The notes: generated from the sequence alone by a model not told the origin. Shown: positions 2,892 to 33,242, counted from the first letter of the stretch. The stretch is 33,242 nucleotides of DNA from a virus (IMGVR_UViG_2703718832_000007:1-33242), one strand, 5' to 3'. Numbers and translations are program-made.

Positions 2892-4895
2892 CTACTTATC
2901 TGATGGTATGAACATACCGGCGCTATTGTCATGCAGACCAACGTAGCCAATGTTTGTACCGGCAGAGCAATAAACATTTATCGTCATTCCAGTAATCTCT
3001 GATTTTTTCGGTAGATCTCCACTAAATATTTCATTCAATGATATTATTTTAACATCCCATTCATCACCAAAGTTTTGTTGAGGGATTTCTAAGAATGTAT
3101 TTCCTGAAGAGGTTGATATGACAATAACTGTCCTGTTATAACCATCATATTCAGTGGATGCAATATTTATCGTGTGCCCCCCTCTACCAACAAAAACCAA
3201 GCTGCAATGTACAATTCCATGTTCAAACCTTTGGTGTATGGAAGACTGTTGAAGGTTAGTTCCGGGATATGAATTTGTCACTGCATAGTAGTCACTACCA
3301 GCATACCCACCACTCTCTTTAACCACTGCACCAGTCCATCCATCAGGGGTAGAACCTGACCAAGAATTAAACTTTGGATTCCTGATAATTGAGTATGGTG
3401 AGTACATCAGACACTGGTTGAAGGTTAACTTACCAGACGCTCTCACACCACCAAGGTCATCTTCTTTATAATATTGTTGTGCAATATCAATTTCCCAAGA
3501 ACATGAAGCACCAGCTTGATTTATAAATCCTGTATCAGTATTCCACTGTTTCGCGTTACTAAGTTGTTTTACAAAATATTTCGCTCTATTATTAAAACCT
3601 GTAGCTAAACCATGTATTCTAAGAGCATAGGAAGAATTAAGTGTATCAAAGTAACCTTTTACTATGCATCCGCGCGTTAAACCTGATTCAAAGCAGACGA
3701 CTGCATCACCAGCACCAGTTCCTCCAGAAGAAATGGCGAAGTTGTTTTCAAAATATCCATCAATTTCTATTCTATCTGAATAACCGAAAACAGATATAGC
3801 CCTGCCTTTATTCCCTTCAAATATACCATTGATGTGCATATCAAACTGGTTATTTATCGCCATTCCATCCCCACCAGTACATGCTGTTATTTTATTTACG
3901 CCATGCATGTATAGAGTGGTCCCTCTAGCAAGATAACTATCAGACCCGTTCAGGTATACCCCGGAAGTACCCCTAGCTAAAAGACTGTCTGTGTTATACC
4001 ACTCTGCATAACCAACTCCGAAGCTAAAGAAGTTATATGTTTGCCCGTTACGCAATTCGACATTTCGAATTTTATTGCGATAGCTTAAACCTCCTAACGC
4101 TATTGCAGCTGCTGGTATTTCAGGATTTGTTGTTGACTCCCACCTTACTAAACCTTTTGTGTAAGCAGGACCATCAGGAAGCATACTTTCTAGGGAAAGG
4201 TTTTCCAGAACACAATCCCATCCCATTGTAATTAGATCAACATCATTATCGTAAAGCCGGAGCTTTGTGAAGTATTTTCCGGCTCCACTTATAGAGGTGC
4301 CATCACGAGGAGTCAATCCATCTGTGATTTTATATTCACCCTCAGGAACAAACACCTGATATGATGCTGCAAGAGCGTTTTTAAAAGCATTTGTGTCATC
4401 AGTAACCCCATCACCTTTAGCGCCAAAATCCTTAACGCTAATCCAGTCTGCGTTTTTGTCATGCTGCGTGCGGCCTACTGAGTTAGTGCGAGGCTGCTTA
4501 ACCCCAACCAGTGCATCACCCATACCGTCTGCGTAGCTAGCGAGCTCCTGCCTGAACTGATCAGGGTCATACTTCAGCACATTAGGAAAATAAAACTGCT
4601 GTGCACCATACGCATCATAAACAGACATAGAATGGCCTTGCACAGTAACGAACTTGGCAATCTGTCCGTTATATACCGGATATCCAGCAGCGTTAATGAT
4701 GATTGGTTGCGAAACAGGAACGTGAGAACCGTCTTCGTTCTCTACATAAACCTGAATCTGGTTTTCAGGATTTACCGGGTCAGTGTCAATTTTTCCGATA
4801 TAAATTTTGCCATTGGCAACCGCTTTAAAAGAACGCGCCATAGTGAAGAGTTGCGAAGGCATTGATACGATCACATTGGCTGTAATGTCTGTCAT
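2892..4895 (-). CDS. Tailspike protein: P22-type head-binding N-terminal domain fused to a right-handed beta-helix (pectate-lyase-like) receptor-binding/depolymerase domain
   Basis: 667 aa; first ~110 residues ([50 protein letters not shown]...[10 protein letters not shown]) match the P22 gp9 head-binding domain; downstream [16 protein letters not shown] motif and Gly/Asn-rich repeats are typical of beta-helix glycanases; the C-terminal domain is unlike P22 gp9. Confidence 0.9.
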
Positions 4896-28207: not shown

Positions 28208-29584
28208 TCATACGTCAGCCCCTTGTGCATATCGTCTGCCACGTGCAGCGGGTGCATTTGATGTTGTGCAAATCTGTCTGGCTTCATCCTGGTCACATGC
28301 AACAAAGTGTCCGTTACAGAACCGCTGGTAAACCGTACCAAGCGAGCCAAAACGGTTTTTCGTCACGATGATTTCAGCAAATGGCGCGGCGCTACTGTTC
28401 TCGTCATATACCGCTTCCCGATAGAGCATGATGATTGAGTCTGCGTCCTGTTCAATGCTTCCTGAATCACGCAAATCTGCGTTTGTCGGGCGTTTGTTTG
28501 GTCGCTTCTCAACATCGCGCGAAAGCTGACTCAGGGAGATAACAGGCGTTTTCAGGTCTTTCGCCATCGCCTTAAGGCTTCCTGAGATGTGAGCAATTGC
28601 GAGGTCGTTGCGATCTGCTTTCGGCTTCTCAATCAGGCCAAGATAATCCGCCATGATGAGTGACAGGTTTGGATTTTCCTGTTTGTGCCGTTCTGCGATT
28701 GAGCGAATTTCTTCGACCGATAACCGCGAGGCATCGACTACCCATACATCCAAATCTGCAAGCTGACTCATGCCGTTAGCAACACGCGCCCAGCCCTCGT
28801 CATCCATCGATGCAGGATTTCGCAGCACGCTAACCGACATCCTCCCGGCGTTGGCAATGCTTCGCTCTGCAATCTGCAATGCGCTCATTTCCATTGAGAA
28901 AATCAATACTCCGCGCCGGACGTCAGAACCAGGAATAACGCGGCTTGCAACGCCTTCGGCAATCTTCAGCGCCAGTTCGGTTTTCCCCATACCAGGACGA
29001 GCAGCGATTATCACCAGGTCTTCCGCGTTCATCCCTCCGGTGATGGCATCAAGTTCTTCGATTCCGGTCTTCAGGGTATCTGACTCTTCTCCGTTCCTCA
29101 GACGCCTGTCAAGCGTGTCAGTGTAGTCAGTAATGATTTCCCCTAACCGTACAGGTTTAACCTCGTCACGGGGCTTTCTGATGGCTGAGAGACGCTTTAC
29201 AAGCTCGTCCATCGCCTGACTCGATGTATCGATGGTTCCGCTCTGAATTGGTTCACGCATTTCATCCATGATTTCCAGCACCAGACGGCGGTGATAGTTA
29301 TCCGCGACCATTCCGGCATATCCCTTCAGGTTTGCGGCACTCGGGCAGTTCTTACTGGTCATCAGGATTGACGTGAAATGCTCCTCTCCGCACGCCTCGG
29401 CAACCATCAGCGCGTCGATTAGGTTTCTGTTTCTCGCCTGCTTGCGGATAACCTCGAAGGCTTTCCGGTAGAGCGGAATTGAAAACGCTTCCGGCTCCAG
29501 CGTTGCCAGAACGTCACTGGCAGTTGGTGTTAATCCACCAATCAGCAGGCCACCGATAACGCTCGCTTCGATATCCTGTCTCAT
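28208..29584 (-). CDS. Replicative DNA helicase, DnaB family (P22 gene 12 position)
   Basis: 458 aa; Walker A GMGKT within the RecA-like domain; DnaB-like N-terminal region; downstream of and coupled to the initiator gene. Confidence 0.9.
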
Positions 29585-30528
29585 GCTATCCCCCTGTCTG
29601 CAAACTTCCCTTCCCGTACTCCCGTTAACGAATCTTCCCTCAGCAGGTAATCAAAATCTGCCGTCCAGCCAGTGTCGTTGTCTCCGAAGTAAAACGGCTT
29701 GGCCTGATGTACAAACGCCCTGACATACGCTCTGAAACCGTCCACGTTTGGCGTTTTCAGTTGCGGGATGATTTTCTTCAGGCGGCGTTTGCGTTTCTCG
29801 TTGACCGCAACAGCGTGTGGCAGTCTGTCACCGACTTCGGTGTTGTAGGCGTTCAGGAAGGATTCGTAGTCGATTCGTTCTGCCTTGCGACGTTCATGTT
29901 TAACCTGCCCATCGCCTCCCCCATTGGGGGGTAGGGGGGTATTATTTATATTCTTGTTAATACCTTCTTGTTCATGATGTGCGGTTGTTTGTGCGGCTTC
30001 ATGTGCGCTTTCATGTGCGGAATGTACGCTGAAAGCCGCGCCATTACTGGCTTCATCATGTGCGGCATCATGTGCGGTTGTTTGTGCGGCTTCATGTGCG
30101 GGTGAATTGTCCATTTTTTGAGCATATTCATGGTAATTTGTGATGGTGATCACACGACCTTTTTGCTTCTCTCCATCAATGGTGATCATCCCCTCTTTCA
30201 CAAAAACCTGAAGCATCCGCTCAACCTGATCACGGCTTGCCGGCTTGCCATGCCTGTCGCATAACTGAAGACCTAAATCAGCTGCTGTCACAACCAGTTG
30301 ACCGGGTTGCAGATGCCATTCATGACCTTTGAAATTCGCTTTGTATGGCTTTCTGGCGGCATTCAGGAGAAGGTTTTCCCACAGGGTGCGAAGATAAACA
30401 TCTTTCGCCCATGACTGTTTCAGAATGCTCCGGTACAACGGAATGTAACCAGTTTTCTGGTTCTCCATCCTGTTGCTCCTGCGCTCGTGTGCGGCGCTGA
30501 AATCGTAGATTTTTGCTGTATTGCTCAT
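29581..30528 (-). CDS. Replication initiator (lambda O / P22 gene 18-like) containing the origin iterons
   Basis: 315 aa; internal low-complexity segment [14 protein letters not shown]...[13 protein letters not shown] is encoded by DNA iterons; placed between cII and the helicase as in lambdoid replication modules. Confidence 0.8.
29976..30104. repeat. Origin of replication: two arrays of four 12-bp-periodic iterons (core GTGCGG on the plus strand) flanked by an AT-rich tract and a G-rich palindrome
   Basis: GTGCGG or GTGCGC cores at 29979, 29991, 30003, 30015 and 30060, 30072, 30084, 30096; AT-rich 29940-29970; CCCCCATTGGGGGG at 29918-29931. Confidence 0.7.
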
Positions 30529-30530
30529 AA

Positions 30531-30803
30531 CTACCTGCCTTGACGAAAGACCTTAAGAACATCGTTAAACTGACTTACGGATATGTCTTCTTTGAGCAGC
30601 TTTTCCAGAAATGCGTTTGGAATGAACGTATATCCCTCCTCTTTTGGTAGAGACGGGATCAACGCCCTCGCCTCAGCCTTCAGAAGCTCAGTTCTGGCAA
30701 CTTTCACAAAAGAGATTTGAGTTCTTTCATCAATGGAACGAAGGAAGCGCAAACGCTTAACTTCTTTGTGTGTATCAGGTGGATTAAAGCCTTTGTTTCG
30801 CAT
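30531..30803 (-). CDS. Hypothetical protein between cII and the replication initiator
   Basis: 90-aa ORF from the ATG at 30803 (GAGG RBS); the longer track ORF 30531-31112 would run through the well-supported cII gene in another frame. Confidence 0.45.
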   Translation of the reverse strand: MRNKGFNPPDTHKEVKRLRFLRSIDERTQISFVKVARTELLKAEARALIPSLPKEEGYTFIPNAFLEKLLKEDISVSQFNDVLKVFRQGR

Positions 30804-30825
30804 ATAATTACCTCGTTGGATGTTG

Positions 30826-31119
30826 TTAAAATTCCATTTGTATTTGATCAGAACGCTCGGTTGCCGCCGGGCGTTTTTTATTGGTGAGAATCGAAGCAAC
30901 TTGTCGTGCCAATCGAGCCATATCGTCGTCAACGACGCCCCATTCAAGAACAGCAAGCAGCATTGAGAACTTTGGAATCCAGTCCCTCTTCCACCTGCTG
31001 ATCTGCGACTTATCAACTCCCACAGCTTCCGCTGTCTTCTCAGTTCCAAGCATTGCGATTTTGTTAAGCAACGCACTCTCGATTCGTAGAGCCTCGTTGC
31101 GTTTGTTTGCACGAACCAT
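30826..31119 (-). CDS. cII: Transcriptional activator CII, lambda-type
   Basis: From the internal ATG, MVRANKRNEALRIESALLNKIAMLGTEKTAEAVGVDKSQISRWKRDWIPKFSMLLAVLEWGVVDDDMARLARQVA.ILTNKKRPAATERS.QIQMEF is near-identical to lambda CII (97 aa). Confidence 0.95.
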   Translation of the reverse strand: MVRANKRNEALRIESALLNKIAMLGTEKTAEAVGVDKSQISRWKRDWIPKFSMLLAVLEWGVVDDDMARLARQVASILTNKKRPAATERSDQIQMEF

Positions 31120-31198
31120 ATGTAAGTATTTCCTTAGATAACAATTGATTGAATGTATGCAAATAAATGCATACACCATAGGTGTGGTTTAATTGGAT

Positions 31199-31229
31199 GC
31201 CCTTTTTCAGGGCTGGAATGTGTAAGAGC
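31199..31229 (-). promoter_or_regulatory. nutR (boxA + boxB) N-utilisation site
   Basis: Minus strand reads GCTCTTACA (boxA) then GCCCTGAAAAAGGGC (boxB hairpin), matching lambda nutR; the downstream leader to cII matches lambda. Confidence 0.85.
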
Positions 31230-31238
31230 TGGAATGTC

Positions 31239-31454
31239 TTAAGCGGCTTTGTGTTCCGGAGGGAACACGTCATCAAGACTGACTTTTGCGCCTAACTTGT
31301 TTAGGCACTCAACAAGAGCACGGCATGTTTTAAGGTCTGGGAAGCGACGACCAGATTCCCAATGTCCGATAGCTCCCTGTGTGCATCCAACTGCCTTAGC
31401 AAGTGTTGTTTGAGAGATATTCAGTGACTCTCGATATTTTCGTAGGTTGCTCAT
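31239..31454 (-). CDS. cro: Cro-like repressor (HTH_XRE family)
   Basis: 71-aa ORF from the internal ATG with a GGAGGG RBS; helix-turn-helix ISQTTLAKAVGCTQGAIGHWESG; divergent from the cI-like gene. Confidence 0.8.
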   Translation of the reverse strand: MSNLRKYRESLNISQTTLAKAVGCTQGAIGHWESGRRFPDLKTCRALVECLNKLGAKVSLDDVFPPEHKAA

Positions 31455-31565
31455 ATGCCCTCCATAGTAACCATGAAACAATAATACGATATGTACTTTT
31501 AGAATGCAAACAAAAAATACATCTTGTGCATGGATGGTTTTAGTACAGAGCGTAATAATAAGGGT
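31455..31565. promoter_or_regulatory. OR region: pR (TTGCAT, 17 nt, TATTAT on the minus strand) with at least two operator dyads
   Basis: Operator-like sites at 31480-31497 (reverse complement AGTACATATCGTATTATT, overlapping the pR -10) and 31542-31559 (AGTACAGAGCGTAATAAT, just upstream of the cI start); divergent cro/cI arrangement. Confidence 0.6.
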
Positions 31566-32225
31566 ATGAAAATGAAATGGTATGAACTGGCTAGATCCAG
31601 AATGAAAGAGCTCGGCATAACTCAAGAGAAGTTAGCTGAAGAGCTTGGTATGACGCAGGGTGGAATTGGTCACTGGTTGCGCGGATCTCGTCATCCATCT
31701 CTTGACGAGATTGGTGTGGTGTTTAAATACCTTGGTATTGATAACGTCTCATTCAACCACGACGGTACATTTTCACCTGTTGGCGAATACTCATCTGCCC
31801 CCGTTAAAAAACAATATGAGTACCCTGTTTTTTCTCATGTTCAGGCCGGGATGTTCTCGCCTGAGCTTAGAACCTTTACCAAAGGTGATGCGGAGAAATG
31901 GGTCAGCACAACCAAAAAAGCCAGTGATTGTGCGTTTTGGCTTGAAGTTGAAGGTAATTCCATGACCGCACCAACAGGATCCAAGCCAAGCTTTCCTGAC
32001 GGGATGTTAATTCTCGTTGACCCTGAGCAGGCTGTTGAGCCAGGTGATTTCTGCATAGCCAGACTTGGTGGTGACGAGTTTACCTTCAAGAAACTGATCA
32101 GGGATAGCGGTCAGGTGTTCCTACAGCCACTAAACCCGCAATATCCAATGATTCCATGCAATGATAGCTGTTCCGTAGTAGGGAAAGTTATCGCCAGCCA
32201 GTGGCCTGAAGAGACATTTAGTTAA
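31566..32225 (+). CDS. cI: CI-type prophage repressor (N-terminal HTH, C-terminal LexA/S24-like autocleavage domain), P22 c2-like
   Basis: C-terminal region [32 protein letters not shown]...[28 protein letters not shown] aligns with P22 C2 (FWLDVQGDSMTAPAG...[28 protein letters not shown]), including the Ser/Lys dyad context. The start is uncertain: ATG at 31566 or 31572; the track ORF begins at 31524. Confidence 0.85.
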
Positions 32226-32257
32226 CAGCCTCACCACTCTAAAACACACAACAATAA

Positions 32258-32286
32258 CCCGACCTTAGCGTCGGGTTTTCTTTTTC
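32258..32286 (+). terminator. Rho-independent terminator after cI
   Basis: CCCGAC-CTTAGC-GTCGGG followed by TTTTCTTTTT; no rex-like genes follow cI. Confidence 0.6.
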
Positions 32287-32300
32287 CAAAATATAAACCC

Positions 32301-32385
32301 ATTAAATACAAAGCGTTATAAAAAACTAATTATATTTAGAACATTTTGTATTGACTCGATAAAGTACAAATCGTACTATTTAGCC
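32301..32385 (+). promoter_or_regulatory. OL/pL region: pL (TTGACT, 17 nt, TACTAT) with operator dyads
   Basis: -35 at 32351-32356 and -10 at 32374-32379; operator-like sites at 32363-32380 (AGTACAAATCGTACTATT, palindromic AGTAC-N5-GTACT) and 32305-32321 (AATACAAAGCGTTATAA); transcript start region ATCAGCAGGACGCACTGACC matches lambda pL. Confidence 0.65.
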
Positions 32386-32418
32386 ATCAGCAGGACGCAC
32401 TGACCACCATGAAGGTGA

Positions 32419-32449
32419 TGCTCTTAAAAATTAAGCCCTGAAGAAGGGC
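32419..32449 (+). promoter_or_regulatory. nutL (boxA + boxB)
   Basis: TGCTCTTA (boxA) and GCCCTGAAGAAGGGC (boxB hairpin), matching lambda nutL. Confidence 0.85.
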
Positions 32450-32717
32450 AGCATTCAAAGCAGAAGGCTTTGGGGTGTGGTGAAGCCAGCTAGTCACTGG
32501 CAAGTGCTTACCTACTGTTGAGCGGTGAAGCGCTCCCAACGCTAGCAATAGCGTGGACGAGATGGGGAGCCGCGGGAGATAAGGCCGCCATAACGCGCAC
32601 GTTGTCGCATGGAAAAATCACTGGGGTGCCGGTTATACCCCTCCGAATGAGACTCAACAAGCTGGAGCTAGACTACCAGCCACCACACCACCAAAGCTAA
32701 CTGACAGGAGAATCCAG

Positions 32718-33050
32718 ATGGATGCACAAACACGCCGCCGCGAACGTCGCTCAGAGAAACAGGCTCAATGGAAAGCAGCAAATCCCCTGTTGGTTGGGGT
32801 AAGCGCAAAACCAGTTAACCGCCCTATTCTCTCGCTGAATCGCAAACCGAAATCACGAGTAGAAAGCGCACTGAATCCGATAGACCTTACGGTGCTGGCT
32901 GAATACCACGAACAGATTGAAAGCAACCTGCAACGTATTGAGCGCAAGAATCAGCGCACATGGTACAGCAAGCCACGCAGTGAAATGGGGGTGACTTGTG
33001 TTGGTCGCCAGAAAATGAAATTAGGCAGTAAGCTACTGTATGAGGGGTGA
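32718..33050 (+). CDS. N: Antitermination protein N, lambda-type
   Basis: 110 aa; MDAQTRRRERRSEKQAQWKAANPLLVGVSAKPVNRPILSLNRKPKSRVESALNPIDLTVLAEYH.QIESNLQRIERKNQRTWYSKP is near-identical to lambda N including the Arg-rich boxB-binding motif; the C-terminal approx. 20 residues diverge. Confidence 0.95.
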   Translation: MDAQTRRRERRSEKQAQWKAANPLLVGVSAKPVNRPILSLNRKPKSRVESALNPIDLTVLAEYHEQIESNLQRIERKNQRTWYSKPRSEMGVTCVGRQKMKLGSKLLYEG

Positions 33051-33053
33051 GAT

Positions 33054-33242
33054 ATGCATAAATGTCAGTTCTGTGGATACATGTTTGAATCAAATGAAAT
33101 GCAACGTATTTCGTTAAACCTTATCGGTAGGCCATACAACATTTGCCTAGGATGTAGCGAGAAATACAAAAACAAAGACATGTGGGACGACAATAAAAAC
33201 GATATCGACTGGAATAAAGTGCCATGTATTGATGATAGTTAA
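33054..33242 (+). CDS. Small hypothetical zinc-ribbon protein (two CxxC pairs), in the position lambda ral occupies
   Basis: 62-aa AT-rich ORF with CQFC...CLGC; starts 4 nt after the N stop; no confident homology. Confidence 0.45.
   Translation: MHKCQFCGYMFESNEMQRISLNLIGRPYNICLGCSEKYKNKDMWDDNKNDIDWNKVPCIDDS

Follow-up and report, generated by a model that had tools for sequence, protein, structure and literature searches.

The window, i.e. the whole stretch of 33,242 nucleotides of viral DNA analysed, is oriented in reverse of the usual lambda map. Its first 25 kb encode the virion of a P22-like podophage and resemble Kapi1, CUS-3 and Sf101. The minus strand then carries a DnaB-like gene (28208-29584), an O-like gene (29581-30528), cII (30826-31119, Pfam Phage_CII) and cro (31239..31454, 71 aa, Pfam HTH_3). 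A lambda-type nutR (31199..31229, minus strand; boxA AGCTCTTA, boxB GCCCTGAAAAAGGGC) delimits the immunity cassette on its right-hand side; in the 434 record, nutR/boxA is annotated beneath the match to this stretch. An OR intergenic region of 111 bp separates cro from the plus-strand gene cI (31566..32225), which encodes 219 aa from ATG 31566 with the Pfam domains HTH_3 at the N-terminus and Peptidase_S24 at the C-terminus. Directly after cI a bidirectional terminator-like hairpin was found (32256..32277, no strand assigned), and rexA/rexB or other genes are absent between cI and OL (32226-32304). Because the rex genes are absent, OL3 follows 28 bp after the hairpin and the distance between OL and OR is only about 0.8 kb. 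Beyond OL the plus strand carries nutL (32419..32449; boxA TGCTCTTA, boxB GCCCTGAAGAAGGGC), which is one base off lambda, in boxA, and N (32718-33050, Pfam N36 peptide). An Rfam scan of 30000-33242 yielded zero families at gathering score.

Both control regions contain three related sites of 17 bp, recorded without strand, whose shared core is the 15-bp dyad A-R-T-A-C-N5-G-T-A-Y-T with a variable centre of 5 bp. Between the divergent cro and cI genes lie OR1 (31482..31498, TAATACGATATGTACTT; core 31483-31497, centre 31490), OR2 (31515..31531, AAATACATCTTGTGCAT; core 31516-31530, AATACATCTTGTGCA, centre 31523) and OR3 (31541..31557, TAGTACAGAGCGTAATA; core 31542-31556, centre 31549). The second set is located at pL, upstream of N (32304-32378), and comprises OL3 (32304..32320, AAATACAAAGCGTTATA; core 32305-32319), OL2 (32337..32353, TAGAACATTTTGTATTG; core 32338-32352, AGAACATTTTGTATT) and OL1 (32362..32378, AAGTACAAATCGTACTA; core 32363-32377), the core of the latter being the perfect dyad AGTACAAATCGTACT. 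Counted along the five-base half-site core, the fourth base is A and the fifth is C in 12/12 half-sites, and the base after the core is a purine in all 12. OR2 is the weakest match, with 3 of 10 core bases deviating from the perfect dyad. Measured between centres, the spacing in OR is 33/26 bp and that in OL 25/33 bp; it is asymmetric, the promoter-proximal pair being 33 bp apart at OR and 25 bp at OL. An earlier note on this DNA had described a four-member operator family, and its four stretches at 31480-31497 (AATAATACGATATGTACT), 31542-31559 (AGTACAGAGCGTAATAAT), 32305-32321 (AATACAAAGCGTTATAA) and 32363-32380 (AGTACAAATCGTACTATT) are present as given. Its clearest palindrome was also correctly placed between the -35 and -10 of pL, where the perfect dyad at 32363-32377 is framed by TTGACT and TACTAT, 17 bp apart. 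However, the family has six members; OR2 and OL2, the middle sites of each set, had been overlooked.

The promoter pL (32351..32379, plus strand) combines a -35 element TTGACT (32351-56) with a -10 element TACTAT (32374-79) at a spacing of 17 bp and agrees with the consensus at 9 of 12 positions. On the minus strand, a predicted pR (31481..31510) with the -35 element TTTGCA (31510..31505), 18 bp and the -10 element TATTAT (31486..31481) would drive cro. The overlap of operators with -10 elements asserted before was confirmed by the consensus scan in both cases, since the OL1 dyad shares 4 bp with the pL -10 and the OR1 core (31483-31497) 4 bp with the minus-strand pR -10. OL2 adjoins or overlaps the -35 of pL. 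OR2 is clear of the pR -35, 6 bp upstream, and the centre of OR1 lies about -16 from the expected pR start. A candidate pRM (31531..31559, plus strand) scored under the threshold of the scan and was read from the sequence, with a weak -35 element TGGATG (31531-36), 17 bp and the -10 element AATAAT (31554-59); in the annotation of AP005153, pRM and a rightward promoter are found at homologous positions. By this reading and that annotation OR3 would cover the pRM -10, so that an operator over the promoter core is seen by the scan at pL and pR and is suggested for pRM.

Relative to the putative pRM start, the centre of OR2 is located at about -43 and that of OR3 at -17. In lambda, the distance between the OR2 centre and the base annotated as the first of cI is 42 bp, and the pRM transcript starts at this base. 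A pRM start near the first cI ATG (31566) would likewise give a leaderless message, as in lambda. The gene offers two ATGs in the same frame, at 31566 and 31572, and AAGGG at 31560-64 is well placed as a Shine-Dalgarno sequence for the second one only. Several GenBank records let cI start at a TTG homologous to 31524. This start, which would lie inside OR2/OR3, was judged an over-extension, and ATG 31566 or 31572 was preferred.

As a test against chance, the dyad AGTAC-N5-GTACT was counted in OR plus OL (219 bp) and in 5000 composition-matched randomisations, each half being allowed one mismatch. Four copies were found, compared to a randomised mean of 0.06 and maximum of 2. The whole 33-kb window holds 7 such copies. 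With at most one mismatch in total, 3 sites remained across 33 kb, each of them within OR or OL. In leave-one-out PWM scans every one of the six sites ranked 1-3 among 33,221 positions, with OL2 at rank 1 and OR2 at rank 3. A PWM trained on the four sites known from the earlier note placed OL2 as next best window-wide and OR2 three places lower. OR3 was closer than OR2 to the dyad consensus in the PWM scan. A plain count of mismatches to the perfect dyad singled out OL1, OR1 and OR3 only, and OR2 and OL3 (3 mismatches) were buried among 71 background sites; the case for these two sites as operators rests on position, conservation and homology. The motif search proposed along with the four sites was carried out as a de novo dyad enumeration in place of MEME. 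The top non-trivial dyad, A[AGT]TAC-N5, recovered exactly the four, but the maximum count of any dyad over OR plus OL failed to reach significance, the null being dominated by A/T runs. The motif-specific and window-wide tests were used in its place. A single look-alike of comparable score was found outside of the control regions, at 3876-3890 (AGTACATGCTGTTAT, PWM 12-15). It lies within a tailspike gene (2892-4895, minus strand; Head_binding and pectate-lyase-like domains) and is probably fortuitous and non-regulatory given its position inside this ORF. A recurrent weak PWM match inside cro (31316-31332, score 9.6) is kept in relatives, which was put down to its lying in coding sequence, and it was left out of the operator count.

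The six sites pair one-to-one with the published OR1-3 and OL1-3 of VT2-Sakai (VT2-Sa), for which the 17-mers are tabulated in Table S1 of PMC10742460. After turning the VT2-Sa 17-mers to the orientation of the window, 59 of 60 core bases were identical; the differing bases lie in the 5-bp centres or at the outer ends. According to PMC4587872 and PMC10742460, the VT2-Sa operators were predicted by Fattah et al. (2000), whose content we cite as it is reported in PMC10742460, PMC4587872 and PMC9803871; the description of VT2-Sa CI as lambda-like in its C-terminal and dissimilar in its N-terminal part is credited to the same study (PMC4587872; PMC10742460). In the GenBank record AP005153, "putative operators" of 17 bp are marked in two sets of three, one in OR and one in OL, that correspond exactly to the six sites of the window. 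Neither footprints nor EMSAs of the cognate repressor or of Cro were found in the literature searched; the sole binding data found there concern lambda CI on VT2-Sa oligonucleotides, with a micromolar apparent Kd.

The DNA from cro via OR to cI is 93-94% identical to that of VT2-Sakai, AP005153 (Stx1-converting), Stx2 II, Nil2, 2851 and the PA series, and the stretch from cro to OL is at least 99% identical in the phages Dewey, Louie, 720R6 and 683R2. Among 5426 complete E. coli genomes, 776 (approximately 14%) carry the immunity module. For a phylogenetic footprint, eight OR and five OL sequences, all distinct, were aligned. In the half-site cores 4 of 60 columns varied, compared with 54 of 150 elsewhere (Fisher p = 6e-6), the latter divided into 8 of 30 in the centres and 46 of 120 in the remainder. 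The OR1 cores are invariant in 8 relatives, and variation at OR2 is confined to the spacer and one core base. The pL -35 is conserved save one C-to-T exchange in ev017, the block GCATGGATGGTT, which holds the putative pRM -35, is invariant, and the cro Shine-Dalgarno sequence is conserved as well. The asymmetric spacing pattern is kept from E. coli to Salmonella relatives, where the gaps of 25-26 bp are invariant, with 32-34 bp for OR1-OR2 and 30-33 bp for OL2-OL3. The Salmonella phages ST64T and SEN22 have the same half-site, spaced 34/26 and 25/30 bp. As they share both this half-site and a TQGxIGHW helix, motif and recognition helix travel together. A PWM search of the OR/OL control regions of lambda and P22 gave zero matches, and lambda or P22 operators were therefore rejected as targets.

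The repressor combines HTH and S24 domains, and Cro has an HTH with a nearly identical recognition helix, TQGAIGHW in Cro versus TQGGIGHW in cI. cI is 96% identical to the Stx1-phage cI of the VT2-Sakai type, with an identical HTH region. Cro is 99% identical to Stx1-phage Cro, one residue apart, and 70% identical to the Cro of ST64T. Since the HTH region of cI is identical and Cro differs by one residue, we predict the same operator specificity as in VT2-Sakai. The N-terminal domain of cI is about 57% identical to the C2 of phage L/ST64T and weakly similar to that of lambda. The C-terminal domain had been called P22 c2-like. This was wrong, because the domain is that of lambda: residues 84-218 are identical to lambda cI at 132 of 135 positions, and P22 C2 is 37% identical overall. 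The three differences are R128K, S139C and E217D in lambda numbering, counted from the catalytic Ser149 and Lys192. Both of these residues are kept, as is the A-G cleavage site. Judged by these alignments, the non-lambda part of the repressor is its N-terminal HTH domain, with distant relatives in the P22-like Salmonella phage L/ST64T.

The flanks of the cassette are of lambda type. cII is identical to lambda cII at 95 of 97 residues, and the 101 aligned residues of N show 92% identity to lambda N. On the pL side, lambda-identical DNA starts around 32385 (CATCAGCAGGACGC...), at the pL transcript start, and runs through nutL; on the other side it starts at the nutR boxA, around 31229. These limits make the cassette boundaries the classical ones of imm substitutions. 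The statement that the operators lie amid lambda-type N, nut sites and cII was thus borne out by the identities to lambda cII, N, nutL, nutR and the pL leader. That the immunity specificity is a recombinant combination is true in the sense of ordinary lambdoid mosaicism. The combination is not novel, since the hybrid cI already exists in VT2-Sakai and the same cassette with the same lambda-type N/cII flanks in phage Louie. In the Stx phages the neighbours of this same cassette are an N of HK97 type and a cII of HK022 type, so the module moves between backgrounds. The middle of the N leader (32487-32680, from nutL to the N Shine-Dalgarno sequence) diverges from lambda. The stretch 32381-33242 matches mEp213 at 99.2% and, for the most part, HK633, mEp043 and Sf101 at 97-98%. 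At the start of cII, the repeat TTGCGTTTGTTTGC (TTGC-N6-TTGC, 31098-31111) is oriented towards cI. We take it to be the pRE CII-binding repeat of lambda; its presence is consistent with lambda-type establishment of repression via antisense cro.

Comparing the locus with known systems, VT2-Sakai (Sp5), AP005153, Stx2 II, Nil2 and 2851 have the 25, 26 and 33 bp spacings in common with the window and differ by 1 bp in OR1-OR2. Nevertheless, OL and the inter-site DNA are only about 80% identical to the Stx phages of this type, which carry about 1.5 kb of extra ORFs between cI and OL, whereas in the window OL comes directly after cI. The window also differs from the Stx phages by its lambda-type N/cII and its P22-like virion module. 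Lambda itself shares the divergent cI/cro genes, three 17-bp dyads each at OR and OL, the place of OL1 inside pL, and a near-identical cI C-terminal domain, pL leader, nut, N and cII. Its operator sequence (TATCACCGC...) is different from AGTAC-N5-GTACT, its spacing is 24/23 bp in OR and 24/20 bp in OL versus 33/26 and 25/33 bp in the window, and its OL and OR are 2.4 kb apart versus about 0.8 kb in the window, which is without rexAB. Lambda immunity (imm lambda) was rejected for the window in view of zero PWM matches in lambda OR/OL and the weakly similar N-terminal domain. The immC of the Salmonella phages L/ST64T/SEN22 has the same half-site (AATACATTTCGTACT, AGTACATTTTGTATT) and three plus three sites with similar spacing, but its repressor has a P22-type C-terminal domain and 46% overall identity to the cI of the window. 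What the window has in common with P22 immC is the overall lambdoid layout and the S24 type of C-terminal domain, and its virion genes are P22-like, but the AGTAC dyad is absent from P22 operator DNA (e.g. ATTTAAGTGTTCTTTAAT). A P22 c2 immunity type was rejected, as C2 is 37% identical and the sites, with AGTAC-N5-GTACT lacking in P22 OR, are unlike those of P22 OR. For epsilon34, putative operators with a TAC...GTA-type dyad were described (WTACRAWWTGTAT; PMC2629481). Its repressor has a lambda-like C-terminal and an N-terminal part about 50% identical to L, VT2-Sa and Nil2, and the authors predicted a different spacing and specificity (PMC2629481).

With essentially identical DNA-binding domains in cI and Cro and with matching operators, the region (approximately 31230-32385) is very probably an immunity cassette of the VT2-Sakai/Stx1-phage/Nil2 type with two tripartite operators, carried by a P22-like E. 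coli phage or prophage. Sites, their specificity for the control regions, their conservation, the homology to catalogued operators and the domain identities of the proteins were observed directly. As to how the switch works, we infer from the sequence the binding to the sites and their hierarchy, cooperativity, looping and the place of pRM. By analogy with lambda, cI dimers would bind the predicted sites through the N-terminal HTH domain. On OR1 and OL1 they would cover the -10 elements of pR and pL and repress both promoters. Bound to OR2, near -43 of the putative pRM, cI would activate its own transcription, and on OR3, over the pRM -10, it would repress pRM at high repressor levels. Cro, with nearly the same recognition helix, would occupy the same sites during lytic growth. 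As the C-terminal domain is nearly identical to that of lambda, RecA-stimulated self-cleavage of cI at the conserved Ala-Gly, leading to prophage induction, and lambda-like cooperativity between dimers are predicted, the latter possibly extended by OL-OR looping across about 0.8 kb. However, OR1-OR2 and OL2-OL3 are 33 bp apart versus 24 and 20 bp in lambda, so pairwise cooperativity in the manner of lambda should not be taken for granted.

An alternative is a switch whose operators are real and whose logic is unlike that of lambda, either with cooperative OR2-OR3 (26 bp) and OL1-OL2 (25 bp) pairs or without cooperativity of adjacent sites. Such a logic would fit the 25-26-bp gaps that stay invariant from E. 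coli to Salmonella while OR1-OR2 drifts over 32-34 bp, the position of OR2 off the pR -35, and the better agreement of OR3 than OR2 with the consensus; in addition, the 933W repressor is reported to bind non-cooperatively (PMC3317979). Against this, only three positions separate the C-terminal domain from that of lambda cI, 33 bp correspond to about three helical turns, and the lambda-like positions of OR1 to pR (-16) and of OR2 and OR3 to the putative pRM (-43, -17) are kept. Overall we consider a departure from lambda logic unlikely. Somewhat less likely still, and offered as speculation, the 98% lambda C-terminal domain together with the non-lambda spacing might reflect a rewired cooperative scheme of the same oligomerisation domain, which could consist of a tetramer over three helical turns across the pR -35 or of OR2-OR3 and OL1-OL2 pairs. 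If true, this would provide a natural test of operator geometry versus protein contacts in switch behaviour, and would also bear on the induction threshold of Stx prophages.

Two further readings deny the cassette its type or the sites their function. The version of the earlier note, a four-site set of novel recombinant immunity specificity with a P22 c2-like repressor among lambda genes, is right in that the four sites are real, the flanks lambda-type and the virion genes P22-like. It is nevertheless very improbable as a whole, given two further conserved sites, a C-terminal domain of lambda cI and not of P22 C2, a cro-to-OL stretch at least 99% identical in four phages (Louie with the same N/cII flanks), a module carried by 14% of complete E. 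coli genomes, and operators catalogued for VT2-Sakai. Chance dyads in AT-rich promoter DNA, or targets of host proteins, in place of operators would be the most far-fetched explanation of all. Some dyad with at least four approximate copies does arise in most randomisations of the two AT-rich regions, and the weak members are inseparable from background by mismatch count; but the G/C-containing dyad is strongly enriched, the cores are conserved where spacers and inter-site DNA diverge, and the motif follows the recognition helix of repressor and Cro into Salmonella phages and is absent from the control regions of lambda and P22.

By comparison with the catalogue, then, the sites are those of an already known immunity type with catalogued (predicted) operators, in a standard lambdoid switch that is unusual in its operator spacing only. 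The original finding was correct but ordinary, because it covers four of six sites already catalogued for VT2-Sakai. The operator count and the assignment of the repressor domains were corrected, which is small as a discovery. The immunity type of the window, that of VT2-Sakai/Sp5, also controls clinically important Shiga-toxin prophages. Since a P22-like podophage carries the same switch, it is predicted to be homoimmune with Stx prophages of this type. A common immunity type that shows non-lambda spacing despite a lambda C-terminal domain poses a modest, directly testable question.

A natural variant of the module was observed in the Klebsiella phage phiKp_30 (LC768498, 940-1180). Its cro and OR are the same, but a deletion removes cI beyond about codon 20 and joins OR to OL2/OL1. 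Core substitutions are found at otherwise conserved positions, one in OR2 (G to T), one in OR3 (T to C) and two in OL2, and from its sequence phiKp_30 looks like a virulent (vir-type) derivative.
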